Assembly (NCBI GenBank): GCA_036259515.1
Contig: DATABP010000705.1
Location: 1-31,079, forward strand
From: Thermoanaerobaculia bacterium
Lineage (GTDB): Bacteria > Acidobacteriota > Thermoanaerobaculia > Multivoradales > JBCCEF01
Length of the DNA: 31,079 nt
Reading direction: 5' to 3'
A program made the position numbers and the translations under genes. The notes beneath the pieces are model-generated. The model was given only the letters and a program-made list of their open reading frames with translations, did no database searches and was not told the DNA's origin. Shown here in pieces: positions 7,907 to 31,079 of this stretch (position 1 is the first letter of the stretch; every line of letters starts with the position of its first letter).

Positions 7907-9175
7907 GTGAAGCCGGGGAAGAAGAGCGCCGACGGGATCTTTCGCCAGGTCGCGCTCGAGCGGCTGTCGTCGCCGGAGCAGCTCGACCAGCTCGTCCAGG
8001 TCACCCGCCCCGGAGGCTGGATCACCCTCGGCGCCTTCACCGTGCTGATCCTCGCCGCCGGCCTGTGGTCCGTGCTGGGCAGCATCCCGATCGTCGCCGC
8101 CGGCGAGGGGATGCTGCTGCGCCCGGGCGGCGTCTCCGAGCTGGTCACCCTCGCCGCCGGTCAGGTCGAGGTGGTCCTCGTCGCCCCCGGCGACCCGCTC
8201 CACAAGGGCCAGGTGGTGGCGCGGGTGCGGCAGGAGGGATTGCAGCGGGAGATCGAGGAGGCACGGGCGCGGCTCGTCGACGTTCGCGGCGACCGCGCCG
8301 AGCTCGCCGCCTACGTCGCCGAGCAGCGCAGCCTGCGCCGCCGGGAGCAGGAGCAACGGCGGGCGAACCTCCAGCTCGGAATCGCCCGTCTGGAGCGCGA
8401 GCTGGCGCTGCTCGAGGATCAGGCGGAGGCGGAGGCGACGCTGCTCGAGGAGGGCCTGGTCACCAAGCAGGTGTTGCTCGCCACCCAGCAGCGCCTCAAC
8501 GCCACCCGCGACGAGCTCGCCGCCCGCCGCCTCGAGCTCGGCGGCTTCGATCTCGTCGACCTCGAGGAGGAGCAGCGCCTCTCCCAGCAGCTCCAGGAGC
8601 GCGACCGCGCGATCCGCGACCTCGAGCTCGAGCTCGGCGAGCTACGCGCCAGCCTGGCCGAGAACGTCGAGGTCGTCTCCCCCCACGACGGCCGCGTGCT
8701 CGAGCTGATGGCCGACCGCGGCGACGTGGTGCAGGTCGGCGACCCGCTGCTCAGCTTCGAGGTCGCCGGCGAGGAGCTGGTCGCGGTGCTGTTCGTCCCC
8801 GCCGCCGAGGGCAAGCGGCTGCGCCCGGGCATGCCGGCGCGAGTGGCGCCGGCCACCGTCAAGCGCGAGGAGCACGGCTACATGGAGGGGGTGGTCCGCC
8901 GAGTCGCCGCCTACCCGTCGACCCCGCGCGGCATCCAGCGGCTGCTCGCCAACGAGGCGCTGGTCGAGCGGCTGGTCGCCGAAGGACCGCCGATCCAGGT
9001 CGACGTGACGCTGCGGCGCGACCCGGGCGCTCCGAGCGGCTTCGCCTGGACCTCCTCGGGCGGTCCCGACGTCGAGATCAGCAGCGGCACGCTGGCCAGC
9101 GGGCAGGTGGTGGTGCGGCGGGAGCGGCCGTTCCGTTGGCTGATCCCCGCGGCGCGGGAGAGCCTCGGCCTGTGA
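7907..9175 (+). CDS. NHLP bacteriocin system secretion protein (HlyD-like membrane fusion protein), 422 aa
   Basis: IFRQVALERLSSPEQLDQLVQVT N-terminal signature, a single TM segment, a long coiled coil, and VKREEHGYMEG and WTSSGGP motifs. GGAGGT SD before the GTG. Confidence 0.92.
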   Translation: MKPGKKSADGIFRQVALERLSSPEQLDQLVQVTRPGGWITLGAFTVLILAAGLWSVLGSIPIVAAGEGMLLRPGGVSELVTLAAGQVEVVLVAPGDPLHKGQVVARVRQEGLQREIEEARARLVDVRGDRAELAAYVAEQRSLRRREQEQRRANLQLGIARLERELALLEDQAEAEATLLEEGLVTKQVLLATQQRLNATRDELAARRLELGGFDLVDLEEEQRLSQQLQERDRAIRDLELELGELRASLAENVEVVSPHDGRVLELMADRGDVVQVGDPLLSFEVAGEELVAVLFVPAAEGKRLRPGMPARVAPATVKREEHGYMEGVVRRVAAYPSTPRGIQRLLANEALVERLVAEGPPIQVDVTLRRDPGAPSGFAWTSSGGPDVEISSGTLASGQVVVRRERPFRWLIPAARESLGL

Positions 9176-11364
9176 GCCGCCTCCGGCTCCCCTGGCGGCG
9201 CCGCAGCCAGCGGCCGCGGCGCGTTCGCACCCCGACGATGCTCCAGATGGAGGCCGTCGAGTGCGGCTCGGCCTGCCTCGGCATCGTGCTGGCGACCTTC
9301 GGCCGCTGGGTCTCGCTCGAGGAGCTGCGCCTCGCCTGCGGCGTCTCGCGCGACGGCAGCAAGGCGAGCAACATGGCGAAGGCGGCGCGGCGCTACGGGC
9401 TCGTCGCGCGCGGCTTCAAGAAGGAGCCGGCGGCACTGCGCGAGCTCCCCGCGCCGATGATCCTGCACTGGAACTTCAACCACTTCGTGGTGCTCGAGGG
9501 GTTCGGCCGCGGCCGCGCGTACCTCAACGATCCCGCCTCGGGCCCGCGCACCGCCAGCGAGGAGGAGCTCGACCAAGCGTTCACCGGCGTGGTGCTCACC
9601 TTCGCTCGCGGCGAGGGCTTCACCCGCGGCGGCAGGCCGCCGAGCCTCCTGCGCGGCCTGCGCCAGCGCCTGGCCGGCAGCGGCTCCGCCGTCGCCTTCG
9701 TGGTGCTCGCCGGTCTCGGTCTGGTGGTCCCGACGCTGGCCATGCCGGCCTTCGCGAAGGCGTTCGTCGACGGCGTGCTGATCGGCGGCCGCGCCGAGTG
9801 GCTGCCGCCGCTGGTCCTGGCGATGACGCTGGCGGCGCTCGTCCTCGGCGCACTGACCTGGCTGCAACAGGTCGGCCTGCTGCGGCTCGAGACACGGATG
9901 GCGCTCGGCGGCTCGAGCCGCTTCCTCTGGCACGTGCTGCAGCTTCCGGTCGAGTTCTTCAACCAGCGCTTCGCCGGCGACGTCAGCAATCGAGTGGCGA
10001 TCAACGACCGCCTCGCCCAGCTCCTCTCCCGCGACCTCGCGGCCAACGCGGTGGCGGCGGCGACGCTCGCCCTCGTCGTGGTCGTGCTCGCCGCCTACGA
10101 TCCGCTGCTCACCCTGGTCGGACTGGCGGTCGTCTCCCTCAACGTGCTGGCGCTGCGCTGGGTGTCGCGGCGACGGGTGGACGGCAACCGGCGTCTGCTC
10201 CAGGAGACCGGGAAGCTCCACGGCACGGCGATCGGCGGCCTCCAGATCATCGAGTCGCTGAAGGCGACCGGCCGCGAGTCGGAGCTCTTCGCCCGCTGGG
10301 CGGGCCACCAGGCGAAGGTGGTCAACGGCCGGCAGGAGCTGGAGCGCCACACCCAGCTCCTGGGCGCGGTGCCGCCGCTCCTGGCGGCGCTCAACACCGC
10401 GGCGATCCTCGGCATCGGCGGCCTGCGGGTGATGGAGGGCCGGCTGACCCTCGGCGAGCTGGTCGCCTTCCAGATCCTGATGGTCAGCTTCACCGCCCCG
10501 GTGGAGAGGATCGTCCAGCTCGGCGGCCGGCTGCAGCTCGTCGAGGGGGACATGAGCCGCCTCGACGACGTGATGCGCTACCCGGTCGATCCCACGGCCG
10601 CGGCCAGCGAGCCGCCGCCCACCACCGAGCCGGCGAAGCTCGCCGGGCGCCTCGAGCTGCGCGGCGTCACCTTCGGCTACAGCCGCGTCGAGCCACCGCT
10701 CCTCGACGGTTTCGACCTGGTGCTCGAGCCGGGGGCGCGGGTGGCGCTGGTCGGCACCACCGGGAGCGGCAAGTCGACGGTCGCCAAGCTGGTCACCGGC
10801 CTCTACGAGCCGTGGGAGGGCGAGATCCTGTTCGACGGGCGGCCGCGCGGCGAGGTCCCGCCGGCGGTGGTCCGCAACTCACTGGCCGCCGTCGACCAGT
10901 CGATCGCGCTGTTCGAGGGCACGGTGCGCGAGAACCTGTCGCTGTGGGACTCGACGCTGCCGCTGCCGCGCATCGTCGCCGCCGCCCGAGACGCCGCCAT
11001 CCACGAGGTGATCGCCGCGCGGCCGGGCGGCTACGACAGCCGGATCGAGGAAGGCGGCGCCAACTTCAGCGGCGGCCAGCAGCAGCGGCTGGAGATCGCC
11101 CGCGCGCTCGCCGGCGACCCCACCCTCCTCGTCCTGGACGAGGCGACCAGCGCGCTCGACCCGGCGACCGAGTCGGCGATCGACGGCGCGCTACGGCGGC
11201 GCGGCGCGAGCTGTCTGATCGTCGCCCACCGCCTGAGCACGGTGCGCGACGCCGACGAGATCCTGGTGCTCGAGCGGGGCAAGGTCGTCCAGCGCGGCAC
11301 CCACGACGAGCTTCTGGCGGACGGCGACGGCGCCTACGCGCGCCTGATCGCCGACGGCACGTGA
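9172..11364 (+). CDS. NHLP-family ABC exporter, C39 peptidase/permease/ATPase subunit, 730 aa
   Basis: VRTPTMLQMEAVECGSACL (catalytic Cys), LHWNFNHFVVLEG (His), YLNDPA, TM region, Walker A GTTGSGKST, signature FSGGQQQR and DEATSALD. GTG 9172 overlaps the upstream TGA. Confidence 0.95.
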   Translation: MSRLRLPWRRRSQRPRRVRTPTMLQMEAVECGSACLGIVLATFGRWVSLEELRLACGVSRDGSKASNMAKAARRYGLVARGFKKEPAALRELPAPMILHWNFNHFVVLEGFGRGRAYLNDPASGPRTASEEELDQAFTGVVLTFARGEGFTRGGRPPSLLRGLRQRLAGSGSAVAFVVLAGLGLVVPTLAMPAFAKAFVDGVLIGGRAEWLPPLVLAMTLAALVLGALTWLQQVGLLRLETRMALGGSSRFLWHVLQLPVEFFNQRFAGDVSNRVAINDRLAQLLSRDLAANAVAAATLALVVVVLAAYDPLLTLVGLAVVSLNVLALRWVSRRRVDGNRRLLQETGKLHGTAIGGLQIIESLKATGRESELFARWAGHQAKVVNGRQELERHTQLLGAVPPLLAALNTAAILGIGGLRVMEGRLTLGELVAFQILMVSFTAPVERIVQLGGRLQLVEGDMSRLDDVMRYPVDPTAAASEPPPTTEPAKLAGRLELRGVTFGYSRVEPPLLDGFDLVLEPGARVALVGTTGSGKSTVAKLVTGLYEPWEGEILFDGRPRGEVPPAVVRNSLAAVDQSIALFEGTVRENLSLWDSTLPLPRIVAAARDAAIHEVIAARPGGYDSRIEEGGANFSGGQQQRLEIARALAGDPTLLVLDEATSALDPATESAIDGALRRRGASCLIVAHRLSTVRDADEILVLERGKVVQRGTHDELLADGDGAYARLIADGT

Positions 11365-14294
11365 GCCTGCCGGCCCCCCGCCCGGCGCCGGAGCGCCCGC
11401 CCGCCTGGGACGAGGAGCTGGTCGCCGGCGGCACGCCGCTCACGCTGGGCGGCAACACCCCCTTTCCCTTGATCGGGCGGCGATCGGCGTGGCGGGTCGA
11501 GAGCGGGCGCGTCGAGGTCTTCGCGGTGGCGCTCGGCGGCGGCCGCCCGCTCGCCCGCGTCCACCTGGCGAGCGCCGACGTGGGTTCCTGGCTGTTCGGC
11601 GGCACCGCCCGCCCGGCCGCCGCCGAGCTCGAGCTCGAGGCGGTGCCGGCGGCCGGCACCCGGTTGGTGCGCGTGGACGAGGCGGCGCTCGCGGCGGCCG
11701 AGTGGCCCGGCGGGCTCGACGAGGCGTTCGGCGTCTGGCTCGACCGCCTCTGCCGCGGCGCGGTACGGCCGCGCCCAGCCCGGATGCCACACGAGCTGGC
11801 GCGGGGGGCGACGCTGGACCTGGTGCCTGACGAGGCGGCGCGACCGTCTCTCGACCCGGTGTGGGCGACGGTGACCGGCCGCTGCCGGCTGTGGGGGGAC
11901 GAGCGGCTCGATCTCCCCGCCGGAGCGCCGCTGCCGCTGCCGACCGCGGCCTGGATCGCCGCCGCCGGCGAGGCGCGGGTCGCCGCCGCCGACGGCCCGC
12001 CCTCCGCCGACGTGGCGCTGACGGGCTACGAGCGGCTCCTGGACCTCCTCCTCGTCCACCTGCGGCATGGCGTCGACGCCGGGCAGTCCGCCGAGCGCGA
12101 TCGCCTGGCCCGCCGTCACGCCGCCGACCGGGCGGCGGTGAGCCGCTCGGCAGCGCGGCTCGCCACCGTGCTCCTACCCCGCCAGGCGGCCGCCGAGACG
12201 ATCGAACCGGGGGGCGATCCGCTGCACGCCGCCGCCCGGTTGGTCGCCGCCACGGCCGGCATCGAGCTCCACCTTCCCGCCGGCCCCGCCGCGGCGCCGG
12301 CGCGCGTCGCCGACGCGCTGAATCTCCTCGGCAGCCGCTCTCGGGTGCGCCATCGCCGGGTGCTCCTGCGCGACGACTGGTGGCGCCGCGACAACGGCCC
12401 GCTCCTCGCCTTCCTCGCTCCCGACGACCCGGCGCAGGGCGAGCGGCGGCCGGTGGCGCTCCTTCCGCTCTCGCCGCGGCGCTATCAGTTGGTCGAGCCG
12501 GTGGAGGGAACGCGCACCGCGGTCGACGCGGCGCTCGCCGGGCGGCTGACCGGCGACGCCTACATGTTCTACCGCCCACTGCCCGAACGGCCGCTCGGGC
12601 CGCTCGACCTGCTCCGCGCGCTGGCCCGCGAAGGCCGCCGCGACGCCGTCGTGATCGTCGCGCTCGGCGCGGTCGGAGGGCTCCTCGCGCTCGCCCTGCC
12701 GCTCGTCACCGGCGCCCTCTTCGGCAGGGTCATCCCCAGCGCCGACCGGTCGCAGCTCGCGCAGATGACGCTCGCCTGGATCGTCGCCGCGCTCGGCATG
12801 AGCGCGTTCCGCCTGGTCCGTGCCCTCGGCCTCCTGCGCGTCGGCGGCCGCCTCGACAGCACCCTCCAGCCGGCGGTGTGGGACCGCCTGCTGGCCCTGC
12901 CGGTCGATTTCTTCCGCCGCTACACGGTCGGCGACCTCGCCGACCGGGCGTTCGGGGTGAGCCAGATCCGGGAGCTCCTCGCCGGCCACGCCGCGACCTC
13001 GCTCCTCGGCGCCGTCTTCGCGGTGTTCAGCTTCGCCCTGCTCTTCTACTTCAGCCCGCCGCTGGCGCTGGCGGCGACCGGGGTCGTCGTGCTGCTCCTC
13101 GCCGTCGCCGCGACCCTCGGCTGGCTGCAGGTGGTGGCGCAGCGGAGGCTCTTCGCGGTGCGCGGACGGATCGCCAGCCTGCTCTTCGCGTTGATCCACG
13201 GCCTTCCCAAGCTGCGCGTGGCCGGCGCCGAGCGCCGCGCCTACGCGCGTTGGGCCGAGCGCTTCGCCGAGCAGCGGCGCCACGACGTCGGCGCCCGCCG
13301 CATCGCCATCGCGCAGACCACCTTCCTCGCCGTCTTCCAGGTGCTGGCGCTCGCCGCGCTGTTCGCGGTCGCCGGGCTGTCGGCGCGCGAGGAGCTGCCG
13401 GTCGGACGGTTCCTCGCCTTCAACGCCGCCTTCGGCCAGGTGCTCGGGGCGGTGGTGGTGGTCGTCCACCTGCTCCCCGAGCTGCTCACCGCGGTGCCGG
13501 TCTACGAGCGGCTCTCCCCGATCCTCACCACCGCTCCGGAGGTCGACGACAGCAAGGCCGAAGCCGGCGAGCTGCGCGGCGAGATCGAGGTCTCGAACGT
13601 CACCTTCCGCTACGCCGACGACCTGCCGAACGTGCTCCACGAGATGTCGCTCCATGCCCGCCCGGGCGAGTTCGTCGCCCTGGTCGGACCCTCCGGTTCG
13701 GGCAAGTCGACCTGTCTGCGGCTGCTCCTCGGCTTCGAGCGGCCGCGGGCCGGCTCGATCTACTACGACGGGCAGGACCTCGCCGGGCTGTCGCTGACCT
13801 CGGTGCGTCGGCAGGTGGGAGTGGTGCTGCAGAACGGCCGTTTGATGGCCGGCACGATCTTCTCGAACATCGTCGGCGACTCCGACCTCGGCATCGACGA
13901 GGCCTGGGAGGCGGCGCGGCTGGCGGGGCTCGACGAAGACGTCCGCGCGATGGCAATGGGCATGCACACCATCGTCTCCGAGGGCGCCGGTACCTTCTCC
14001 GGCGGCCAGAAGCAGCGGCTGCTGATCGCCCGCGCCATCGTCCACCGGCCGCGCATCCTGTTCTTCGACGAGGCGACGAGCGCGCTGGACAACCGGGTGC
14101 AGGAGGTGGTCAGCCGGAGCCTGGAGCGGCTGGAGGCCACCCGCGTCGTCGTCGCCCACCGGCTGAGCACCATCGCGCGGGCGGACCGCATCTACGTCGT
14201 CGACGGCGGGCGGGTGGTCGAGAGCGGCACCTACCGCGAGCTCGTGGCACAGGATGGGCTGTTCGCCCGCCTCGCGTCGCGGCAGACGCTGTGA
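11361..14294 (+). CDS. NHLP bacteriocin system ABC transporter permease/ATPase subunit (no peptidase; N-terminal cNMP-binding-like domain), 977 aa
   Basis: VRHRRVLLRDDWWRRDNGPLLAF, DAYMFYRPLP, Walker A GPSGSGKST, FSGGQKQR and FFDEATSALDN. GTG 11361 overlaps the upstream TGA. Confidence 0.93.
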   Translation: MSLPAPRPAPERPPAWDEELVAGGTPLTLGGNTPFPLIGRRSAWRVESGRVEVFAVALGGGRPLARVHLASADVGSWLFGGTARPAAAELELEAVPAAGTRLVRVDEAALAAAEWPGGLDEAFGVWLDRLCRGAVRPRPARMPHELARGATLDLVPDEAARPSLDPVWATVTGRCRLWGDERLDLPAGAPLPLPTAAWIAAAGEARVAAADGPPSADVALTGYERLLDLLLVHLRHGVDAGQSAERDRLARRHAADRAAVSRSAARLATVLLPRQAAAETIEPGGDPLHAAARLVAATAGIELHLPAGPAAAPARVADALNLLGSRSRVRHRRVLLRDDWWRRDNGPLLAFLAPDDPAQGERRPVALLPLSPRRYQLVEPVEGTRTAVDAALAGRLTGDAYMFYRPLPERPLGPLDLLRALAREGRRDAVVIVALGAVGGLLALALPLVTGALFGRVIPSADRSQLAQMTLAWIVAALGMSAFRLVRALGLLRVGGRLDSTLQPAVWDRLLALPVDFFRRYTVGDLADRAFGVSQIRELLAGHAATSLLGAVFAVFSFALLFYFSPPLALAATGVVVLLLAVAATLGWLQVVAQRRLFAVRGRIASLLFALIHGLPKLRVAGAERRAYARWAERFAEQRRHDVGARRIAIAQTTFLAVFQVLALAALFAVAGLSAREELPVGRFLAFNAAFGQVLGAVVVVVHLLPELLTAVPVYERLSPILTTAPEVDDSKAEAGELRGEIEVSNVTFRYADDLPNVLHEMSLHARPGEFVALVGPSGSGKSTCLRLLLGFERPRAGSIYYDGQDLAGLSLTSVRRQVGVVLQNGRLMAGTIFSNIVGDSDLGIDEAWEAARLAGLDEDVRAMAMGMHTIVSEGAGTFSGGQKQRLLIARAIVHRPRILFFDEATSALDNRVQEVVSRSLERLEATRVVVAHRLSTIARADRIYVVDGGRVVESGTYRELVAQDGLFARLASRQTL

Positions 14295-14316
14295 TCGCGA
14301 GCGGCAAGGAGAGAGC

Positions 14317-14850
14317 ATGCGCAAGGTCCTGTTCGTCTTCGGTCAACTGGCCGACGACGACGTCGAATGGCTGCTGGCGCACGGCCGGCGCCGCCGGCTG
14401 GTCGCCGGCGAGGCGCTGATCCGCCAGGGCGAGCCGATCGACGACGTATTCATCGTGCTCACCGGCCGCTTGCGAGTGGTTCTCGGCGGCGAGCGGCGGG
14501 AGATCGCCCTCCTCGGCGCCGGCGAGATCGTCGGGGAGATGTCGTTCGTCGACGCGCGGCCGCCGTCGGCGACCGTCGAAGCGGTCGAGCCGGCGCAGGT
14601 CTTCGCCGTGCCGCGCAGCCGGCTGGCGGCGCGGCTCGAAAGCGAGCCCGCCTTCGCCGCCCGCTTCTACCGCGCGCTGGCGATCTACCTCTCGACCACC
14701 GTGCGCGAGCGCCATCGGATGCTGCTCGCCGGCGGCGTCACCGGGGGTGGCGAGGACGACGCCGACGAGCTCGACGCGACGGTGCTCGACGGCGTGTCCC
14801 AGGCCGGCGCCCGCTTCGACCGCCTGGTCAAGAGGGTGCTGGCGTCGTAG
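14317..14850 (+). CDS. Cyclic nucleotide-binding domain protein of the type associated with bacteriocin transport, 177 aa
   Basis: MRKVLFVFGQLADDDVEWL, LIRQGEPIDDVFIVLTGRL and GEIVGEMSFVDARPPSATVEA (phosphate-binding cassette). AAGGAG SD before ATG 14317. Confidence 0.88.
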   Translation: MRKVLFVFGQLADDDVEWLLAHGRRRRLVAGEALIRQGEPIDDVFIVLTGRLRVVLGGERREIALLGAGEIVGEMSFVDARPPSATVEAVEPAQVFAVPRSRLAARLESEPAFAARFYRALAIYLSTTVRERHRMLLAGGVTGGGEDDADELDATVLDGVSQAGARFDRLVKRVLAS

Positions 14851-14860
14851 GAGGCCACCG

Positions 14861-17800
14861 ATGCCGTGCCCGTCCTGCCAGTTCGAGAACCCGCCGGCGA
14901 TGCGCTTCTGCGGCCGGTGCGGCACGCCGCTCGAGCGCCCCTGCCCGCGCTGCGGCGCCGCGGCGCCGGCCGGCTTCCGCTTCTGCGGCCAGTGCGGCGG
15001 CCGACTCGACGACGCCGGGACGATCGACCCGCCGCGGGAGCGGCCCTATACGCCGGCGCATCTCGCGCACGACGTCCTCGCCTCCCCCGCCGCGGTGGAG
15101 GGTGAGCGCAAGCTGGTGACCGTGCTGTTCTGCGACGTCACCGGCTCGACCGAGCTCGCCGAACGGCTCGGTCCCGAGGCGATGCACGCGCTGCTCAGCC
15201 GTTTCTTCGAGCTGGCGCTCGCCGAGGTGCACCGCTACGAGGGGACGATCAACCAGTTCCTCGGCGACGGCTTCATGGCGCTGTTCGGTGCTCCGGTCGC
15301 TCACGAGGACCATGCCCGGCGCGCGGTCCTGGCGGCGGTCGGGCTGCAGGCGCGCCTCCTCGGCGAGCAGGAGGACCTGGTGCGCGGCCACGGCGCCGGG
15401 CTGGCGGTGCGCATGGGGATCAACACCGGCTCGGTGGTGGTCGGCGGCATCGGAGACCGGCTGCGCATGGACTACACCGCGGTCGGCGACACCACCAACA
15501 CCGCGGCGCGCCTGCAGCAGGCCGCGGCGCCCGGAACGGTGCTGATCAACGAGGCGACCCGCCGCCTGGTCAAGGACCACGTGCGGCTGCGCCGCCTGGC
15601 GCCGCTGGTCGTGAAGGGCAAGAGCGAGCCGCTGATCGCCCACCGCGTCGTGGGGCCGAACGGCAAGCGCCGCGCCCACGCCGCCGCCGGACGGCCGCTC
15701 ACCTCGTTCGTCGGCCGCCGCCGCGAGCTGGCGCTGCTCGAGGAGCTGTGGCGCGAATCGGCGGCGGGACGCGGCCAGGTCGTCGGCGTCACCGGCCCGC
15801 CCGGCGTCGGCAAGACGCGGCTGGTGCTCGAGCTGCGCCGGCGCCTCGAGCGGCTCGGCGCCTCCTGGCTCCGCGGCGCCTGCGAGTCGTTCGGGCAGCG
15901 GGTGCCCTTCCTGCCGCTCGAGCACATCCTGCGCGACGCATTGCGGCTCGAGGCCTCGCTGCCGCTCGAGGCGGTGGCGCAACGGGTCCGCGAGGCGATC
16001 GCGGCGACCGACCTGCCGGTCGACGAGGCGCTCGCGCTGCTCCTGCGCCTGCTCGGGGGTGCCGGCCCGGGCGCCGGCGAGCGCGACCTCCGGCTCGAGC
16101 GCCGGCGGTGCCTCGAAGTGCTGCAGCAGGTGCTCCTCGCCTTCAGCCGCCGGGAGCCGCTCGTCCTGGAGATCGAGGACCTGCATTGGGTCGACGCCAC
16201 GTCGGAGGAGTTCCTCGACCTCCTGGTCGACGCGCTGCCGCGCGCGCCGATCCTGCTTCTGCTCACCTACCGCACGGGCTACGGACCGCGCTGGCTGGAG
16301 CGCTCCTGCGCCACCCAGGTGCCGTTGCGTGACTTCGGCCCCGACGAAAGCGTCGCCGTGCTCGCCGGCCTGTGGGGAGAGGCGGAGCCCCCGAGGGAGA
16401 TCGTGCGCCAGGTGCTCGACCGCGCGAACGGCAACCCCTTCTTCCTCGAGGAGCTCGGCCGGGCGGTGCGCGAGACGGCGACCGCCGGGCGGCAGGAGGA
16501 GGTGCCGGAGACGGTGCAGGGCGTGCTCACCGCCCGCATCGACCGGCTGCCCGACGACCACAAGCGCCTGCTCCAGGCCGCCTCGGTGTTGGGGCGGGAC
16601 TTCCCGGTCGCGGTGCTGGCGGAGGTGTGGGAGGCGCAGCGGCCGCCCGGCGAGCCGCTCGACCCACTGCTCCGCGACCTCCGCCGCTGGGAGCTGCTCC
16701 ACGAGCTGCCGAGCGTGCGGCCGCCGCGCTACGCGTTCCAGCACGCGCTCACCCAGGAGGTGACCTACCAGGGCCTCCTCTCCGAACGCCGTCGCGCGCT
16801 CCACGCCGCCGCCGCTCGAGCCTACGAGTCGATCTACGCCGGCGACCTCACCGCGGTCTACGACCAGCTCGCCCACCACTTCCCGCGCGCCGACGAGCCC
16901 GCGCCCGCGGTGCGCTACCTCCAGCTCCTCGCCGATCGCGCCGCCCGCCGCACCGGCTTCGCCGAGGCGGTGGAGGCGCTGAGGGAGGCGATGGAGGTCG
17001 CCGAGCGGCTCCCCGAGGAGACCCGCGACCGCGTCGTCGTCGAGCTGGCGATCGAGTCGGCGCGCTGGCTCTTGCCGCTCGCCCGTTTCCCCGAGACCCT
17101 CGAGCTCCTCGAGCGACAGGCCGGACGCCTCGCGCGGCTCGCCGACCCCGCCCTGGCCGGACGGCTCCGGTTCTGGCTCGCCCACACCCACAGCTACCTC
17201 GGCCATCAGGAGGCGGCGACGGCGGAGGCGCAGCGGGCGATCGCCGCCGCCGCCGAGGCCGGTGACCCGGTCACCGAGGGCAAGGCGCGCTACGTCCTCT
17301 CCCGCGACGCCTTCTGGGCCGGCCTCTTCACCCAAGGCTTGGAGCAGGGCAAGCGGGCGGTCGAGCTGCTCCGCCGCGCCGGCGAGACGTGGTGGGAGGG
17401 GCAGGCGCACTGGGTCGACGCCTTCCACCACTTCGTCCTCGGCCGGCCCTCCGAGGCATTGGCGACGATGGAGCGCGCCGAGCGGATCGCCGCCGAGCTC
17501 GGCGACTACCGCCTCGACCCCTCCTGGAGCACCGGCTATTTCCTCACCGTCCTCGGCCGCTGGGACGAGGGCGTCGAGCACTGCCGGCGCGGGATGGAGC
17601 GCGCCCGCGACCCGTTGAACTCCGCGGCCGCGCTGGGCTTCCTCGGCCACGCCCACCTCGCACGCGGCGAGCCCGGGCTGGCCGTCGAGGCGCTCGAACG
17701 CTCGGTGGAGCTGCTCGCGACCAGCGGCTTCCTCCAGCTCCGCGGCTGGTTCCTCGCCTTCCTCGCCGAGGCGCACCTGGCGCGCGGTGAGCGGGAGGAG

Positions 17801-18202
17801 GCGCGGCGCTCGGCTCACGAATCGCTGGCGGTGAACCGGCAGGCGGGCTTCCGGCTCGGCCTCGGGCTGGCCCATCGCGCCCTCGGGCGCCTCGCCACCA
17901 CGGAGCGGCGCCCCGACGAAGCGGCCCGCCAGCTGGCGGAGGCGCTGACGCTCTTCGAGGGGCTCGAAGCGCCGCTCGAGCGGTGTCGCGTCCACCTCGA
18001 CCTGGCGCGCCTGGCGAAGCTCCTCGGGCAGCAGGTCGGCGCGCTGGCGGAGCTCGACGCCGCGCGTCGCGCGCTGCTCCGTGCCGAGCCGGCGACGGTC
18101 GCCGGACGGGCCGACCTCGACGAGGTCGAGCGCCAGGTCCTCGCCTCCGACGGCGCGCGCGCCGCCACAGGTGGCAGGGACGCCTCCGCCGCTGAGGCTT
18201 GA
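14861..18202 (+). CDS. Class III adenylate/guanylate cyclase with double zinc ribbon, AAA/STAND P-loop and TPR-like C-terminus, 1113 aa
   Basis: Zinc ribbons CPSC..CGRCG and CPRC..CGQCG; cyclase motifs VLFCDVTGST, NQFLGDG and YTAVGDTTNTAARL; Walker A GPPGVGKT; IEDLHWVD; GNPFFLEE. AGGAGG SD before ATG 14861. Confidence 0.92.
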   Translation: MPCPSCQFENPPAMRFCGRCGTPLERPCPRCGAAAPAGFRFCGQCGGRLDDAGTIDPPRERPYTPAHLAHDVLASPAAVEGERKLVTVLFCDVTGSTELAERLGPEAMHALLSRFFELALAEVHRYEGTINQFLGDGFMALFGAPVAHEDHARRAVLAAVGLQARLLGEQEDLVRGHGAGLAVRMGINTGSVVVGGIGDRLRMDYTAVGDTTNTAARLQQAAAPGTVLINEATRRLVKDHVRLRRLAPLVVKGKSEPLIAHRVVGPNGKRRAHAAAGRPLTSFVGRRRELALLEELWRESAAGRGQVVGVTGPPGVGKTRLVLELRRRLERLGASWLRGACESFGQRVPFLPLEHILRDALRLEASLPLEAVAQRVREAIAATDLPVDEALALLLRLLGGAGPGAGERDLRLERRRCLEVLQQVLLAFSRREPLVLEIEDLHWVDATSEEFLDLLVDALPRAPILLLLTYRTGYGPRWLERSCATQVPLRDFGPDESVAVLAGLWGEAEPPREIVRQVLDRANGNPFFLEELGRAVRETATAGRQEEVPETVQGVLTARIDRLPDDHKRLLQAASVLGRDFPVAVLAEVWEAQRPPGEPLDPLLRDLRRWELLHELPSVRPPRYAFQHALTQEVTYQGLLSERRRALHAAAARAYESIYAGDLTAVYDQLAHHFPRADEPAPAVRYLQLLADRAARRTGFAEAVEALREAMEVAERLPEETRDRVVVELAIESARWLLPLARFPETLELLERQAGRLARLADPALAGRLRFWLAHTHSYLGHQEAATAEAQRAIAAAAEAGDPVTEGKARYVLSRDAFWAGLFTQGLEQGKRAVELLRRAGETWWEGQAHWVDAFHHFVLGRPSEALATMERAERIAAELGDYRLDPSWSTGYFLTVLGRWDEGVEHCRRGMERARDPLNSAAALGFLGHAHLARGEPGLAVEALERSVELLATSGFLQLRGWFLAFLAEAHLARGEREEARRSAHESLAVNRQAGFRLGLGLAHRALGRLATTERRPDEAARQLAEALTLFEGLEAPLERCRVHLDLARLAKLLGQQVGALAELDAARRALLRAEPATVAGRADLDEVERQVLASDGARAATGGRDASAAEA

Positions 18203-24296: not shown

Positions 24297-24307
24297 GCTC
24301 GCGAGTT

Positions 24308-24356
24308 CCTCCTCCCATTCCGGGAGCGAGGTGTTCAACGAGGGAGAATCCCTCGT
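24308..24356 (+). other. Two RNA hairpins directly 5' of the precursor ribosome-binding site
   Basis: CCTC-CTCCC/GGGAG-C-GAGG at 24308-24331, and a perfect 8-bp stem ACGAGGGA-GAA-TCCCTCGT at 24338-24356 ending right before the AAGGAG SD at 24357. Confidence 0.55.
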
Positions 24357-24369
24357 AAGGAGAAGAGAG

Positions 24370-24561: not shown

Positions 24562-24577
24562 CGAGCACGGCGATGGA

Positions 24578-24623
24578 CCGCCCGGCCGAGAGCGCCCCAG
24601 CTCGCGGCCGGGCGGCCTTCTTT
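24578..24623 (+). terminator. GC-rich stem-loop after the precursor (leaky terminator or 3' stabiliser)
   Basis: 11-bp perfect stem CCGCCCGGCCG (24578-24588) / CGGCCGGGCGG (24605-24615), followed by CCTTCTTT. The weak U-tract suggests partial read-through. Confidence 0.55.
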
Positions 24624-24642
24624 CGGCGGCGAAGAGAATCCC

Positions 24643-25344
24643 ATGCCAGCCACCGAGACCCTGCGCTGGTACTACTTCATCCCCCGCTGCGGCGGCGAGG
24701 GGCAGCGCTGGTTCGTCGACTATCACGCCTCCCGGTGCATGCAGTTGACGGCCGATCTCGATCGCGCCCTCGTCCTGCTCCGCACGCAGAGGGTGAACGA
24801 GGGTTGCGTGCTGCTCGACCGCTGCGAGGCGCGTCTGGACGCGATGCGGCAGGCGCTCGCGCCCGCGGTGTTGAAGGTCGCCGAACGCTGGTACTTCAGC
24901 ACCGTGGCCTACTACTGGTACGTGGTCGGGGACGCTCCCCGGGCGCTCCTCTTCCTGCGGCAGGCCGAGGAGGCGCTGGTCGCGGCGATCGACCGCGCCG
25001 GTTTCCTCGTCGTCCTCGCCGGCGCGTGCTGCGAGTTCGAGCTCCACCGGGCGCGCGTCGCCCGCTCGGTGGGTGACTGGCCGACCATGCGCGAGCACCT
25101 CGAGGGCGGACGCGCGATGGTCGAGAACCGCCGCCCCCTGTGCGAGCTCGACGGCGGGACGGCGATCCACTTCCGCGACTACGACGGGTTCTTCCGCACG
25201 CTTCGGCCGCGAAGCGAAGAGGAGCGAGCGGCGATCGCGCAGCTCACCGACGCCGGGGTGCGCGCCCGCGGCTTCGAGCTCCACGCCCGCCGGGTCGAGC
25301 TCCTGCCGAACGTCGTGGTGCCGTTCCAGGCCACGGAGCTCTGA
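24643..25344 (+). CDS. Hypothetical helical (TPR-like) protein inside the RiPP cassette, 233 aa
   Basis: Ordinary protein composition, unlike the shadow ORFs. Its TGA overlaps the next ATG (TGATG). I recognise no family motif. Confidence 0.7.
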   Translation: MPATETLRWYYFIPRCGGEGQRWFVDYHASRCMQLTADLDRALVLLRTQRVNEGCVLLDRCEARLDAMRQALAPAVLKVAERWYFSTVAYYWYVVGDAPRALLFLRQAEEALVAAIDRAGFLVVLAGACCEFELHRARVARSVGDWPTMREHLEGGRAMVENRRPLCELDGGTAIHFRDYDGFFRTLRPRSEEERAAIAQLTDAGVRARGFELHARRVELLPNVVVPFQATEL

Positions 25345-26345
25345 TGCTCACCGGGCCCGCGACCCTGCCCTCGGCGGTGAAGCTCGGCGCGAGCTGCTGG
25401 ATCTCCTACAACCTCTACACGTCGTCGGGGGACGAGGCGCTGCGCGGGGTGATCGCTCCCGCCGTCGCCGACCTCCTCCGCCGGCGCTCGATCCGCGGCT
25501 TCTTCTTCGTGCGCTACTTCGACGAGCGAGGGCCGCACCTCCGAGTGCGCCTCGACGTCGCGGAGTCTCGGCTCGAAGAGGCCGACGCCGCCTTCGTGGC
25601 CGGTGTCCTGTCGCGGCTCGACGCGCCGACGCCCGGCGATCGCCTCCTGCCCTCCGAGATCGAGCTGGAGGTCGAGCGCTACGGCGGCCCCGCGGCGCAC
25701 CTCGCCGCGCTCGATTTCTTCTGTCTCTCCAGCCTCCACGCCCTGGAGCACGTCCGCCGCCACCACGCGGCGAGGCCCGTGCAGCGCCTCAAGCTGGCGA
25801 CTTCGCTCCTGCTCTGGCAGGCGTTGGGGTTCGCCCGCACCGTCGAGGAGCTGCGGGCGCTCCTCGACTACTTCAGCGGCTGGCGACCGGCGCTGGCGGC
25901 GGTCGTCGCCAAGGCCGACGAAGCCTTCGACCGGCACCCCGAGGGCTGGTGCGAGCTCCTTCACCGGGCGATCCGCATCGCCGACGAGGCCGCCGAGAGC
26001 GCGGCCGGCGACCTCGGGTCGGCGGGGGCGATCTTCACCGCCTCCCGCGGCCTGTCCCGGCAGACCGAGGAGGTGCCGTCCGCCGCCCGCGCCGAGCTCG
26101 CCCGCAGCCAGATGCACATGACCGCCAACCGCATCGGTCTGAGCAATGCCTGGGAGATCTACCTCTCGCAGATCCTCTGCCGGAGCGCGGCCGCCGCCGA
26201 GGCCGCCGATCCCGCGTTCCTCCCTGGCCTCGAGCGCCGTCTGAGCCACTGGCGAAGCCAGGCGCACCCGGCGGGAGCGGTCGCTCTCGCCGAGCTCGTC
26301 GCCGACGGCCTCGCCCGCTTCGCGGCGGGCTGGCCGTCGAGATAG
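25344..26345 (+). CDS. Thiopeptide-type bacteriocin biosynthesis protein / canonical Lant_dehydr_C elimination domain, 333 aa
   Basis: WISYNLY, FFFVRYFDERGPHLRVR, LEVERYGG and SQMHMTANRIGL...EIYL. Confidence 0.88.
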   Translation: MLTGPATLPSAVKLGASCWISYNLYTSSGDEALRGVIAPAVADLLRRRSIRGFFFVRYFDERGPHLRVRLDVAESRLEEADAAFVAGVLSRLDAPTPGDRLLPSEIELEVERYGGPAAHLAALDFFCLSSLHALEHVRRHHAARPVQRLKLATSLLLWQALGFARTVEELRALLDYFSGWRPALAAVVAKADEAFDRHPEGWCELLHRAIRIADEAAESAAGDLGSAGAIFTASRGLSRQTEEVPSAARAELARSQMHMTANRIGLSNAWEIYLSQILCRSAAAAEAADPAFLPGLERRLSHWRSQAHPAGAVALAELVADGLARFAAGWPSR

Positions 26346-26353
26346 AGCAGCTC

Positions 26354-28747
26354 TCAGTCGGCCCTCATCTCGCGCACGGCGTCGATCGAGCGTGCCCGGG
26401 CTGCCGGGATCCAGCTCGCCAGGAGGCCGATCAGGGCGACGGCGACGACCGCCGCCGAGAAGACGATCGGCTCGCTCGGCGTCGTCGCGTAGAGCTGATG
26501 GCGGAGCAGCCGGCTACCGAGGAGCGCCGCGAGCAGGCCGACGGCGAGCCCGAGGCCGAGCGTGCGCGCCGAATCGCCCAGCACCAGCCGGGCGAGCTGG
26601 CCGGGCAGCGCTCCCAGCGCGATCCGGACCCCCATCTCCCGCCGGCGCGAGACGACCGAGTAGGCCAGCACGCCGTAGATCCCGATCGAGGCCAGGAACA
26701 CGGCGGTCGCCGCCAGAGCGGTGAGCACCGAGGCCGCGAAGCGTTGCCCTGCCGTGGTGGCGGCGATCCGCCGCTCCATCCAGTCGAGGCTCAGCGAGGC
26801 GTCCGGGGCGACGCGCCGCACGATCTCGGACATGCGGGAGGCGAACGCGGCGGACGGCTCGCCCTCGCCCCGCACCGCCACCTCGAGCGTCCTTCCGAGC
26901 AGCGGACGTTGCGCCAGCGCGACGTAGTACTCGAGCTGCGTTCCGGGATCGCTCCGCCAGTGCCTGGCGTCCTCGACCACGCCGACCACGGTCAGCGCGT
27001 GGTCCGGATAGGGATCCATGCCGTCGATGCGGAAGCGTTGGCCGAGCGGGTCGCGGCCGGGCCAGGCGCTCTCGGCCAGGCTGCGGTTGATCACCGCGGC
27101 GTGCGGCGCGCCGGCGGCGTCGCGACGGTCGAACAGGCGGCCGCGGAGGAGCGGGATACGCAGGGCCTCGAAGTAGCCCGCATCGGCGATCCGATAGTGC
27201 GCCAGCGGCACCTCGGAGCCGCCTTCGGTGCGCAAGGGGCCGACGAACTGACCGGCGGCCAGCGGCAGGTGGCTGGCGACGCCCGCCGCCGCGACGCCCG
27301 GCGCGCGCGAGAGCTCGTCGACGATCCGCGCGTAGGTCTCGACGATGGCCGTCGGGTCGCCGCTCGCGAGATCGACGCCGACGGTCAGCACCCCCCGCGG
27401 CTCGAAACCGACGTCGGTGGTGACGATCCGCCAGAGGCTGTGGACCAGCAGGCCGCCGCTCGCCACCAGGACCAGCGCCGCGGCGACCTGGCCACCGACG
27501 AGCAGCCGCCAGACCAGCGACCGGCCGCCGCCGGAGCGCGACCACCCCACCCGCTCCCTGAGGTCGATGCGGGCGCCCCGGCGGAGGAGCGAGAGCGCGG
27601 GGAGCAGCCCGAAGAGCAGCACGCTCAGGGCGCTGACCCCGACCACGAAGAGGAGGGTGCGGCCGTCGACCGCGACCTGATCGAGCCGCGGGATGGGCGT
27701 CGCGGCGCGCCGCAGCAGCCGCAGGCTGGCCCAGGCGAGCGCCAGCCCCGGGACGGCGCCGATCCCGGCGAGCACGGCGTTCTCGGCGAGCAACTGGCGG
27801 AGCAACTGCCAGCGGCTGGCGCCGAACGACGCCCTGATCCCCAGCTCCTGGCGGCGAGCCACTCCCCGCGCCAGGAGCGTGCTTCCGACGTTGACGCAGG
27901 CGATCAGGAGGAGCAGACCGGAGGCCGCTGCCAGCAGGACCAGCGGCCGTGCGGCGCCGCCGACCATCCAGCTCTTGAGCGGCTCCATCGCCACCGCCAC
28001 GGCCGTCGTCTCGGCCGGGAACTCCTTGGCGACGCGGGCGGCGATCTCGTCGAGCACCCTGTCGGCGGCCTCGGCATCGGCGCCCGCGGCGAGCCGGCCG
28101 ACCACCGGCAGCACGTGGTTGCCGCGGACGGTCCACGGGACCGCCCGCTCGAGCGGGAGCCACACGTCCGCGTCGAAGAGGATCGAGAAGCCCGGCGGTG
28201 CCACACCGACGACGTCGAAGACCTCCCCGGCCACCTCGACTCGGACCTGGCCGAGGTCCTCCGGCGCACCGAGAGCGCTCGCCCACAGGCGATGACCGAC
28301 CACCGCGACGGCGGCGGCGCCCGGCCGGTTCTCCTCCGGCCGGATCCAGCGCCCCCTGAACGGCGCCACGCCGCCGACCAGGAAGAAGTCGCCGGTGACG
28401 CTCGACGAGCTGGCGCGGATCGGGCCGCTCGGCGCCCGCACGGTCACCGTGTCCGGCGGGGTGACGGCCGCCATCGCCTCGAAGTGTCGAGCCTCCCGCC
28501 GCCAGTCGGCGAAGTTCGGGTAGGAGGCCCACGCCGCCTGGCCCTCGCGATCCGCCTCGCGGAGCAGCATCAGGCGGTCGGAATCGGGAAGCGGCAGCGG
28601 CCGCAGCAGCACGCCGTCGACGAGGGTGAACATCACCGTCGTGGCGCCGATGCCGAGGGCGAGCGTCAGGGTGACGAGGCCGCTGACGCCGGGCGCCCGC
28701 ACCGCCGCGCGCAGGCCGAGCCACAGGTCGCGTCGCAATCCGCTCAT
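26354..28747 (-). CDS. MacB-like duplicated ABC permease (ADOP-type orphan permease), 797 aa
   Basis: LTLALGIGATT, SYPNFADWR, LLIACVNVGS...RRQELGIRASFGASRWQLLRQLLAE, TTDVGFEPRGVL and GIYGVLAYSVVSRRREMGVRIALGA. No ATPase domain. Confidence 0.93.
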   Translation of the reverse strand: MSGLRRDLWLGLRAAVRAPGVSGLVTLTLALGIGATTVMFTLVDGVLLRPLPLPDSDRLMLLREADREGQAAWASYPNFADWRREARHFEAMAAVTPPDTVTVRAPSGPIRASSSSVTGDFFLVGGVAPFRGRWIRPEENRPGAAAVAVVGHRLWASALGAPEDLGQVRVEVAGEVFDVVGVAPPGFSILFDADVWLPLERAVPWTVRGNHVLPVVGRLAAGADAEAADRVLDEIAARVAKEFPAETTAVAVAMEPLKSWMVGGAARPLVLLAAASGLLLLIACVNVGSTLLARGVARRQELGIRASFGASRWQLLRQLLAENAVLAGIGAVPGLALAWASLRLLRRAATPIPRLDQVAVDGRTLLFVVGVSALSVLLFGLLPALSLLRRGARIDLRERVGWSRSGGGRSLVWRLLVGGQVAAALVLVASGGLLVHSLWRIVTTDVGFEPRGVLTVGVDLASGDPTAIVETYARIVDELSRAPGVAAAGVASHLPLAAGQFVGPLRTEGGSEVPLAHYRIADAGYFEALRIPLLRGRLFDRRDAAGAPHAAVINRSLAESAWPGRDPLGQRFRIDGMDPYPDHALTVVGVVEDARHWRSDPGTQLEYYVALAQRPLLGRTLEVAVRGEGEPSAAFASRMSEIVRRVAPDASLSLDWMERRIAATTAGQRFAASVLTALAATAVFLASIGIYGVLAYSVVSRRREMGVRIALGALPGQLARLVLGDSARTLGLGLAVGLLAALLGSRLLRHQLYATTPSEPIVFSAAVVAVALIGLLASWIPAARARSIDAVREMRAD

Positions 28748-29862
28748 GGAGGACCTCCCGCACCGACCGACCGTGGGAGCGTGAACCGGGCCGGGTCGTC
28801 CCGACAGCCGGCGCGCCCGAAGGTCGAGCGCGCAGACGACCGCAGGAGCTGAACCATCAGGTACGCCTTGGCCTCGGGAGCGCGGCCGGGTACCGCGATC
28901 AACTTGACATGGCTCAGAGCGCGCGCCACCGCGTCGCCGAGACCGGCGCCGTCAGGCCAACGCGGGCAGGCGCTCCAGAGAGTTTCGGCGCCGGTCCAGT
29001 CGGAGAGGGCGTCGCGTTCCTCCGGACGACAGAGGCCGGCGGCGACCAGGCCGTCGAGCAGCGTCCGCCAGCGCGGTTCCCGCCGCGGAAGCCGCCGGAA
29101 GGAGCAGTTGACGCCGAAGCGCGGCCGGACCTCCTCTCCGACGTCGAGCGCGAGATGGTGCGGCTCGGCGTCGGCGGTCAGCGGCCGGAGCTCGCCGACG
29201 GCGCGGCCGGCGTCGGCGCCGGCCAGCCGCTCCACCAGGCGCCGTACGGCGTCGAAGCTCAGGCCACCGATCTCGATCCGCTCCGGCCGACCCGGACGGG
29301 AGAGCATCGAGAACGCGTAGCGCGTCCGCGCCCCGCGCGGCAGCGCCCGCAGCGCCCGTTCCAGCGCGCGCCGATGGGAGGCCGGGATACGGCGTCCCGC
29401 GAGGGCCGCGAAGAGGCCGCTCGCCAAGGGATCGGGCGCTTCGGGCGCGAGGTCCGCCGCGGCGCTCGGCAGCGGCAGCCCGCCCCCGGCGCCGGGCGCG
29501 CCGTCGAGGTCGTACTCGAGCCACAACCAGCGGACACCGCGCCAAGCGCCCCGTCGGCCGCCGCACGCGAAGCGGGTCAGGTGGGACGGCAGGGCGGCGG
29601 CGGGGAGCCGTCGCGCCGTGGAGCGATCCAGACGGATCGAGAGGTCCACCGGCGCCTGGCCGGAGCGGCCGAGCCGCAGCTCGAGCGCCGCCAGCGCGTC
29701 GAGCGGCAACTCGGCGGCGGCGGCGGCCAGGCGACCGAGCGCCGGCAGACCCGCCAGAGTCGGCCGCAGCCGGTCTTCGACGAGTGGCAGGAGCTCCGAG
29801 AGGCGGCCTTCCGACGCCGGCGAGAGTCGGCCCGCGGCGACCGCCTCAGGTTCCCCCACCAC
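28744..29862 (-). CDS. Hypothetical RiPP-associated protein, possibly PT-barrel (ABBA prenyltransferase)-like; start uncertain (29862 or 29859), ~372 aa
   Basis: Motifs ELRL...VDLSIRL, WLWLEYDL, LDVGEEVRPRFGVNC, EPRWRTLLDGLVAAGLC and ALSHVKL...PEAKAYL. Lies between the Nif11 precursor and the permease (ATGA overlap). The fold call is inference only. Confidence 0.6.
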   Translation of the reverse strand: MVGEPEAVAAGRLSPASEGRLSELLPLVEDRLRPTLAGLPALGRLAAAAAELPLDALAALELRLGRSGQAPVDLSIRLDRSTARRLPAAALPSHLTRFACGGRRGAWRGVRWLWLEYDLDGAPGAGGGLPLPSAAADLAPEAPDPLASGLFAALAGRRIPASHRRALERALRALPRGARTRYAFSMLSRPGRPERIEIGGLSFDAVRRLVERLAGADAGRAVGELRPLTADAEPHHLALDVGEEVRPRFGVNCSFRRLPRREPRWRTLLDGLVAAGLCRPEERDALSDWTGAETLWSACPRWPDGAGLGDAVARALSHVKLIAVPGRAPEAKAYLMVQLLRSSARSTFGRAGCRDDPARFTLPRSVGAGGPP

Positions 29863-30175
29863 CGGTGCCGCCGCTGCCCGTGCCGCCGGTGCCGTCGGTG
29901 CCGTCGGTCCCGCCGGTGCCGGTGCCGGTGCCGTCGCCGTTCTCGCCGGTGCCGTCGTCGTCCCAACCGCCCGCCACCTGCTCGAGGTCCTCGTCCTCGA
30001 GCTCCTCGCGGCGAGCGAGGAGCTCCACGGCCTCGTCGGCGTCGAGCCGGTAGCCCAGCTCGGCCGCGCGGCGACGCCAGAGGTCGGGATCCTGCCGAAC
30101 GGCGGCCAACTCGCGGGCGACGTCTTCACGGGCCGCCAGGTCGATCACCAGACGCCGTGCTTCGGTCCTCGACAT
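29846..30175 (-). CDS. Nif11-like leader RiPP precursor, 109 aa: 70 aa leader plus 39 aa Trp-led Gly/Thr/Asp-rich core
   Basis: The leader has Nif11-type features (DLAAREDVARELAAV...AAELGYRLDADEA...ELEDEDLEQVAGG). Core: WDDDGTGENGDGTGTGTGGTDGTDGTGGTGSGGTGGGGT. Very strong SD AGAGGAGGTGA. Confidence 0.88.
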   Translation of the reverse strand: MSRTEARRLVIDLAAREDVARELAAVRQDPDLWRRRAAELGYRLDADEAVELLARREELEDEDLEQVAGGWDDDGTGENGDGTGTGTGGTDGTDGTGGTGSGGTGGGGT

Positions 30176-30249
30176 TCTTCACCTCCTCTTGGCGTCGAGT
30201 TTAACCGAGAACGCTCGGCCGTGCCGCGACGCCCGAGGGGCCGGCCGCC

Positions 30250-31079
30250 CTACCGCGTGTACGACTCCAGCTCGCTCCAGGTGTCCTCTTCGATCACCTT
30301 CTTGACGTCGATCATGAAGCGGTCGGCGTCGGCGCCGTCGACCACGCGGTGGTCGTAGCTGATCGAGAGGTAGCACATGGTCTTGATCGCGATGGTGTCG
30401 TTGCCGTCCTCGTCGCTGGCGACGATCGGGCGCTTCTCGATCGTGCCGACGCCGAGGATCGCCACCTGCGGCTGGTTGATCACCGGGGTGCCGAAGAGGC
30501 TGCCGAAGACACCCGGGTTGGTCACCGTGAAGGTGCCGCCGCGGAGCTCGTCGGGGCCGAGCTTCTTGCCGCGGGCGCGGTCGGCGAGGTCGTTGGCGGC
30601 CTTGGTCAGGCCGGTGATCGAGAGCTGGTCGGCGTCCTTGATCACCGGCACCAGGAGCCCGCGGCCCGGGATGTCCACCGCCATGCCGATGTTGATCGCC
30701 TTCTTGTAGACGATGTTCGCGCCGTCGACCGCGGCGTTGACGTTCCGGTGCTTCTTGAGCGCCGTCGCCACCGCCTTGAAGATGAACGGCATGTAGGTGA
30801 GCTTGGTGCCGTTGGCCTGCTCGAAGCCGCGCTTGGCCCGCGCCCGCGCCCGCGCCACGCGCGAGAAGTCGACGTGGAAGACGGTGGTGACGTGCGCCGC
30901 GGTGTCCTTCGAGTAGCGCATGTGGGCGGCGGTGATCTGACGCACCTTCGACATCGGCTCGATCTCCACCTCCTCGCCCTCGACGTAGGCGGGGACGTGG
31001 AAGTCGGCGATCGGCGAAGCGCCCGACGGCTTGGCGGCGGCCGGGGCCGGGGCGGCGGCGGTGGCGGCGGCCGGCGCGG
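30250..31079 (-). CDS. 2-oxoacid dehydrogenase E2 (dihydrolipoamide acyltransferase), C-terminal catalytic domain; 5' end lies outside the window
   Basis: GGTFTVTNPGVFGSLFGTPVINQPQVAILGVG and LSISYDHRVVDGADA (catalytic His). The frame stays open through an Ala/Pro linker to the window edge, so the track start at 30969 is internal. Confidence 0.95.
   Translation of the reverse strand, partial: APAAATAAAPAPAAAKPSGASPIADFHVPAYVEGEEVEIEPMSKVRQITAAHMRYSKDTAAHVTTVFHVDFSRVARARARAKRGFEQANGTKLTYMPFIFKAVATALKKHRNVNAAVDGANIVYKKAINIGMAVDIPGRGLLVPVIKDADQLSITGLTKAANDLADRARGKKLGPDELRGGTFTVTNPGVFGSLFGTPVINQPQVAILGVGTIEKRPIVASDEDGNDTIAIKTMCYLSISYDHRVVDGADADRFMIDVKKVIEEDTWSELESYTR

Follow-up and report, generated by a model that had tools for sequence, protein, structure and literature searches.

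The protein considered here, P0001, is encoded on the reverse strand of a 31,079-nt contig (DATABP010000705.1, assembly GCA_036259515.1) from a Thermoanaerobaculia bacterium of the phylum Acidobacteriota; this whole stretch is referred to below as the window. P0001 is predicted with high confidence to adopt the alpha-beta-beta-alpha (ABBA) or prenyltransferase (PT)-barrel fold, and it is most likely a soluble enzyme of this fold that acts on the peptide encoded just upstream. Its probable function is that of a leader-guided peptide Trp prenyltransferase, whose product would be cut after Gly-Gly and exported by an NHLP-type system. The two genes at the centre of this proposal are as follows.

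28744..29862, (-) strand: P0001, predicted ABBA (PT-barrel) peptide prenyltransferase of 372 amino acids (aa), recognized from its AlphaFold2 fold, Foldseek matches and conserved residues
29846..30175, (-) strand: Nif11-like precursor peptide of 109 aa, matching TIGR03798 at E 4e-7 and 30.2 bits, just below the 32.3 cut-off

Gene and predicted fold of P0001

With a G+C content of about 74%, the window is expected to contain long open reading frames (ORFs) that arise by chance. The interval 28744-29862 is a real gene. Its frame is judged genuine despite the high G+C because the codon-position GC pattern is of the coding type from about 29860 (and fails farther upstream in the same open frame), and because searches with the protein return 42 close homologues and, at E <= 0.001, 1328 cluster representatives. 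The GTG start at 29862 (another GTG follows at 29859) falls within the 3' end of the precursor gene, giving a 17-nt overlap, and the TGA stop shares a common ATGA with the start of an ADOP permease gene at 28747, a 4-nt overlap. Both overlaps agree with the earlier note, which described a gene following and overlapping a Nif11 precursor and coupled to a permease, with the qualification that the permease coupling is not conserved in relatives. The public gene call begins at residue 52 and yields a protein of 321 aa, leaving out two conserved helices. This call is probably too short, since residues 21-49 form two confidently predicted helices (predicted local distance difference test, pLDDT, > 90) that can be aligned with homologues. 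The only start codons before residue 21 are the GTGs at 29862 and 29859, one of which is the likelier start. A promoter and terminator scan of 26200-30400 gave nothing usable.

The AlphaFold2 model of P0001, built from the family alignment, has a mean pLDDT of 86.3 and a predicted template-modelling (TM) score of 0.85, with disorder only at residues 1-14 and 344-372. It comprises five alpha-alpha-beta-beta repeats whose ten main strands form a 10-strand antiparallel barrel, the ABBA/PT-barrel architecture. Strands 1-5 span residues 57-63, 72-78, 110-118, 133-138 and 179-185, and strands 6-10 span residues 194-201, 235-241, 245-253, 311-323 and 330-340, with helix pairs between the strand pairs. 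The alternating helices and strands ending in HVKL...EAKAYL that had been picked out from the sequence correspond to these five units, HVKL (318-321) lying in strand 9 and EAKAYL (330-335) in strand 10. When the model is compared with the PDB using Foldseek, the best 50 matches are all ABBA prenyltransferases (E 1.4e-6 to 7e-3, TM 0.37-0.54), the best of them being NphB (1zb6, E 1.4e-6). Matches include NphB/Orf2, 5-DMATS, IptA, DMATS1, PriB, CymD, AmbP1, AmbP3, FamD1 and CloQ, together with the peptide-acting group LimF, PagF, PirF and PatF. Structure searches of the ESM Atlas return DMATS clusters at TM 0.63 and PTase_Orf2 clusters at TM 0.56. No competing fold emerges, and the PT barrel that the earlier note had offered as a weak guess is now a high-confidence prediction. 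A predicted structure other than a PT barrel, the outcome named there as refuting the idea, did not result.

The predicted barrel carries a strongly conserved set of charged and aromatic residues. Across 122 relatives R195 is conserved in 100%, D118, K320, K332 and Y334 in 99%, E61 and D73 in 97%, H318 in 96%, E116 in 95%, D240 in 94% and R314 in 93%, and P0001 also keeps the conserved W114, R63 and R248. The best conserved part of the family consists of the HVKL and EAKAYL strands (strands 9 and 10), in which H318, K320, K332 and Y334 are retained at 96-99%. Several of these residues show an i, i+2 spacing on the predicted strands (E61/R63; W114/E116/D118; R314/H318/K320; K332/Y334), so that their side chains are expected on one face of the strand. 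Judged by the solved ABBA enzymes, they may line the lumen of the modelled barrel and bind diphosphate, and possibly Mg2+.

Precursor pairing and the candidate tryptophan acceptor

The peptide gene upstream of P0001 has a strong Shine-Dalgarno sequence, AAGAGGAGG, ahead of its ATG. The leader ends in L-EDED-L-EQVAGG (LEDEDLEQVAGG) and is followed by a core with Trp at position 1 and an Asp/Gly/Thr-rich tail; this core contains one Trp and no Cys. Using this precursor as a tblastn query, precursors are matched in two related loci, L001 and L004, and precursors of the same leader type adjoin the homologue in other related loci. Related loci were drawn from assemblies, same-phylum genomes and 42 species-representative genomes, the carriers being mostly metagenome-assembled genomes (MAGs) of Thermoanaerobaculia, Holophagales and other Acidobacteriota. 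In 41 of the 42 loci the PT gene is adjoined by a GG-leader precursor whose end usually lies 9-58 nt upstream of it, and several distant loci show the pairing as well; the co-occurrence check that had been suggested for Trp-led Nif11 precursors thus finds the partner nearly throughout, with one Trp per core. In the related loci this single Trp lies at core position 1-4, as in DNWPPA, AWPPP, DGWPPA, DTAWPPPPPPPGP, DDGWGTGTPPPPTDGSGGG and WCGNELTTG. Many of these cores are only 5-13 residues long, and the core in the window is longer. Distant members of the family are accompanied by NHLP-like or short-leader precursors, the cores of which again carry one Trp (GGWCTPV, HWCSPV, GSCVAWSCNNPQ...).

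Of all residues in the cores, which number more than 45, Trp alone is present in each; the Asp/Glu, Pro, Gly and Thr around it are variable or absent. Since nothing else is constant across the cores, Trp is the best candidate for the acceptor. It occupies position 1 in the core of the window and positions 2-4 in most relatives, so the target would be the single Trp and not specifically an N-terminal Trp. The earlier suggestion that Trp1 could be modified finds comparative support in the pairing as far as a single-Trp acceptor is concerned, whereas the N-terminal position is not general. It is improbable that a PT barrel of this kind prenylates something other than the Trp side chain, such as the new N-terminal amine, an Asp/Glu carboxylate beside the Trp or a Thr of the tail. 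Besides Trp, cyanobactin-type ABBA PTs do accept Ser, Thr, Tyr, His, Arg and peptide termini (PMC12715784; PMC13290415), and acidic residues often flank the Trp in related cores; however, none of these flanking residues shares the constancy of the Trp, and in the majority of relatives some other residue heads the core.

For Trp prenylation by P0001 a plausible course of events can be outlined. The Nif11-like leader, with its helical part and L(X)4L-E-x-V-A-G-G end, would dock on P0001, and the only Trp of the core would enter the open end of the barrel. An allylic diphosphate would be held at the other end by R63, R195, R248, R314, K320, K332 and Y334, while E61, D73, E116, D118 and D240 may bind Mg2+ or the indole NH. 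Loss of diphosphate would generate an allylic cation and lead to alkylation of the indole. Cleavage of the lipidated precursor after Gly-Gly would then fall to the C39 domain in the cassette's NHLP-type ABC exporter (see below), and export would follow.

Family context and predicted prenyl transfer activity

Relatives of P0001 also occur in Cyanobacteriota and Myxococcota, and a number of them are multidomain proteins. P0136, P0156, P0178, P0240 and others are fused to terpene cyclase domains resembling squalene-hopene cyclase, and P0172 and P0179 are fused to methyltransferases. Between P0001 and the cyanobacterial fusion P0240 there is 25% identity across 347 aligned residues (E 3e-24), and P0240 retains the motifs of P0001. 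The terpene cyclase fusions support an isoprenoid substrate for the family, because such domains need isoprenoid. Another relative, P0242 (663 aa, from a metagenome), contains a LANC_like domain and is an apparent prenyltransferase-lanthionine cyclase fusion. Family members are additionally present in lasso-peptide-type clusters of Vicinamibacterales and cyanobacteria (L069, L070, L072, L073 and L074), where they stand alone or are fused to a terpene-cyclase-like or methyltransferase domain. These clusters encode an Asn-synthase-like cyclase, PqqD, a transglutaminase-core protease, an HPr-kinase-like protein and a P450, along with a small Nif11-domain protein ending in HDWAMRW.

Two recently characterized enzymes invite comparison with P0001. 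MppC, from the mpp cluster of Moorena producens PAL, is an ABBA PT that attaches a geranyl group to C5 of a lanthipeptide Trp in a leader-dependent manner (Wakeel, McShan, Agarwal, JACS 2025; PMC12715784). Its precursor is Nif11-led with a leader ending in ELSDSELEAVAGG, and the enzyme prefers a macrocyclised core (PMC12715784). In similarity networks MppC-like sequences are unconnected to PagF, and 87 of them lie beside Nif11 ORFs (PMC12715784 SI). Compared by description, P0001 resembles MppC as a predicted soluble ABBA PT with a Nif11-like precursor and a Trp in a short core, and the two systems share the L(X)4L-E-x-V-A-G-G leader end (MppE LSDSELEAVAGG; here LEDEDLEQVAGG). As with MppC, some relatives of P0001 are linked or fused to LanC/LanM-type genes. 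Unlike MppC, P0001 is acidobacterial and lies in a cassette with a cyclase/AAA/TPR protein, and its precursor has no Cys; most cores of its relatives (e.g., DNWPPA) lack both Cys and Ser/Thr. No lanthionine ring can precede prenylation here, because the precursor core is devoid of Cys. NctPC (Hubrich et al., Chem 2024) is, in the account given in PMC13290415, a bifunctional prenyltransferase-cyclase that matures a peptide made on the ribosome and modified after translation (RiPP). According to the same account, its P domain, which is joined to a terpene cyclase, is an ABBA-barrel PT of low similarity to cyanobactin PTs that geranylgeranylates (C20) a Trp of the ribosomal peptide (PMC13290415). 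The P0001 family, with its many PT-cyclase fusions (e.g., P0136, P0178, P0240), recalls NctPC as described there, although P0001 itself has no cyclase domain.

The cyanobactin F-type PTs (PagF, LimF, PirF and KgpF; PF19156/TIGR04445) have the fold predicted for P0001 and prenylate peptide side chains, Trp included, but P0001 has no detectable sequence similarity to them. Cyanobactin PTs work after leader removal on cores processed by PatA/PatG, whereas Pfam and NCBIfam scans of the window genes find no PatA/PatG-type subtilisin protease and no PatE-type precursor. At the P0001 locus the leader type and the overlap of the two genes suggest action on the full precursor. The expected product, a secreted peptide of very few residues bearing a single prenylated Trp, is reminiscent of ComX of Bacillus. 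The enzymes differ, ComQ being an all-helical protein resembling trans-isoprenyl diphosphate synthases (PMC13290415) and P0001 a predicted barrel, and a ComP/ComA-type sensor is not present. P0001 fits the newly described kind of enzyme represented by MppC and NctPC (2024-2025) and differs in its cassette and in its linear, Cys-free and often tiny core. A literature search found no paper on the acidobacterial system.

Several observations weigh against P0001 being an active peptide PT. Against solved PTs the model reaches modest TM-scores (0.37-0.54) with large root-mean-square deviations; P0001 is therefore a divergent member of the ABBA fold. There is no link in sequence between the P0001 family and the solved or curated ABBA PTs. 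P0001 matches no family in Pfam or NCBIfam (no meaningful NCBIfam family), and in particular neither TIGR04445 nor any of the curated ABBA models PF11991 (Trp_DMAT), PF11468 (PTase_Orf2) and PF19156 (DUF5838). These three Pfam models match none of the 122 relatives, even at E <= 1, and profiles built from 27 and from 122 family members match no PDB sequence. A separate search for PF11991 found nothing in 201 genomes of the phylum or in 14 control genomes. No isoprenoid-supply gene was found among the window ORFs scanned. Inactive proteins with the ABBA fold exist, and one of them, PatF, is among the Foldseek matches. Finally, P0001 carries Asn at position 252, which is Glu in 91% of the 122 relatives and Asp in the closest clade; this substitution could weaken its activity. 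Codon 252 (29107-29109, (-) strand) is the sole near-invariant position of the family at which P0001 deviates, and Asn252 could be a tuning change, an inactivating change or an error in the MAG consensus.

One alternative is that P0001 is a catalytically dead barrel that binds the leader and serves export as a scaffold or chaperone, in the manner of the inactive cyanobactin homologue PatF. This is slightly less probable again than a non-Trp acceptor. It would account for Asn252, for the lack of sequence matches to active ABBA families and for the presence of PatF among the fold matches. On the other hand, P0001 retains all other near-invariant charged and Tyr residues, the strong purifying conservation seen in the strand residues of 122 diverse relatives is suggestive of an active site, and in relatives the gene is the sole modifying enzyme adjoining the precursor. 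An ABBA-like barrel performing a different peptide chemistry, with an electrophile other than a prenyl diphosphate, would be in keeping with a fold assigned by prediction at modest TM-scores and with no donor-supply gene being found among the nearby ORFs scanned, but it is very improbable given that all significant fold matches are prenyltransferases and that relatives carry fused terpene cyclase domains, and no chemistry other than prenyl transfer is known for the ABBA fold. Leader-guided prenylation of the single Trp remains the probable role of P0001.

Export cassette, neighbouring genes and significance

The PT belongs to a conserved cassette that includes an NHLP-type exporter, a cyclic-nucleotide-binding protein and a cyclase/AAA/TPR protein. 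The corresponding genes of the window, with the permease gene adjoining P0001, are as follows.

7907..9175, (+) strand: HlyD-type secretion adaptor of the NHLP bacteriocin system (TIGR03794, 350 bits, above cut-off)
9175..11364 (start approximate), (+) strand: NHLP-type export ABC subunit 1, whose N-terminal domain is a C39 peptidase (TIGR03796, above cut-off at 1045 bits)
11361..14294 (start approximate), (+) strand: NHLP-type export ABC subunit 2, a permease/ATPase (TIGR03797, above cut-off at 899 bits)
14254..14850, (+) strand: small cyclic-nucleotide-binding protein, flanked by exporter and cyclase genes (PF00027, E 9e-20)
14747..18202, (+) strand: zinc-ribbon/class III nucleotide cyclase/AAA_16/TPR protein (Pfam DZR, Guanylate_cyc, AAA_16, TPR_12)
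26354..28747, (-) strand: ADOP-family duplicated FtsX-type permease (TIGR03434, 713 bits, above cut-off), with ATGA coupling to the PT gene

ABC subunit 1 (9175..11364) is likely the GG-leader protease, its Peptidase_C39 domain lying at 9229-9612 (117 bits). A single 1677-aa ABC gene at 9261-14294 (+) was considered and rejected, as over its first ~700 codons it reads the C39-ABC1 gene (~9175-11364) in an alternate frame. The TIGR03797 match covers residues 985-1675 of this frame; only its C-terminal 691 codons match the model, making it an example of a misleading long ORF at 74% G+C.

In 36 of the 42 loci (L027-L068) the cyclase gene lies directly beside the PT gene in convergent orientation, its product showing ~50% identity, and two further genomes keep the whole order of HlyD, ABC and cyclase genes facing the PT and precursor genes. 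Convergence of the two genes is also seen at L001, L002, L004, L019 and L020. The best NCBIfam match of the cyclase protein is TIGR03903 (TOMM_kin_cyc, TOMM system kinase/cyclase fusion), below cut-off. The protein is encoded in a single copy in this genome, and in a small sample of five related genomes of the order, a full-length cyclase protein and an above-cut-off exporter were each found in just two, the two PT carriers.

In the window a lanthipeptide-type cluster and the ADOP gene separate the cyclase gene from the PT. The ADOP permease was rejected as a dedicated exporter or conserved partner. It belongs to a many-copy family: this genome (3.4 Mb, 76% complete) holds 29 matches, of which 12 exceed the curated cut-off. 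Just 2 of the 42 related loci have an ADOP gene close to the PT; the coupling to P0001 is local only. The inserted lanthipeptide/thiopeptide-type cluster occupies 18249-26345 (+), where relatives have nothing, and encodes a LanC-like protein, a 678-aa weakly pyridine-synthase-like protein, a LanB-like protein, a 233-aa protein of no assigned function and Lant_dehydr_C, as well as a GG-leader precursor with an SCSCSCC core. P0001 was also considered as an enzyme for the lanthipeptide precursor at 24286-24561, a possibility set aside because that core has no Trp and because relatives lack lanthipeptide genes. LanB/LanC genes flank some related loci (L028, L039, L057, L062, L063 and L065). Elsewhere in the window, two adjacent ORFs at 6678-7772 (-) correspond to the first and second half of DUF7005 (positions 14-175 and 216-359 of the profile), and the pair looks like one gene with a stop codon splitting the halves.

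Prenyl lipidation alters the membrane behaviour and bioactivity of peptides, and selective Trp prenyltransferases are wanted as biocatalysts. Because this family of 1328 representatives has no curated model, it is missed by genome annotation and by standard RiPP mining. In the Thermoanaerobaculia/Holophagales branch the substrates are unusually simple, each being a linear core with one Trp and a length of five to a few dozen residues; they would provide a minimal and easily tested system for leader-guided Trp prenylation.

The fixed link to cyclase/AAA/TPR and cyclic-nucleotide-binding proteins raises the idea of second-messenger control or signalling. A signalling role for the product is speculation: the cassette might make a ComX-like prenyl-peptide signal whose production or export is tied to cyclic-nucleotide signalling through the cyclase, the cyclic-nucleotide-binding protein and the exporter, an idea with the odds well against it. 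It is compatible with the tiny single-Trp products, with the single-copy cyclase adjacent in 36 of the 42 loci and with the restriction of cyclase and exporter to PT carriers (two of five genomes). As a counterargument, the cyclase gene could just be one component of the export operon, a related TOMM/NHLP-associated cyclase having been curated as TIGR03903. If the idea were true, Acidobacteriota would possess a form of prenyl-peptide communication built on an ABBA enzyme and not on ComQ. More broadly, the family would point to a widespread and so far unseen class of small lipopeptides in soil Acidobacteria.

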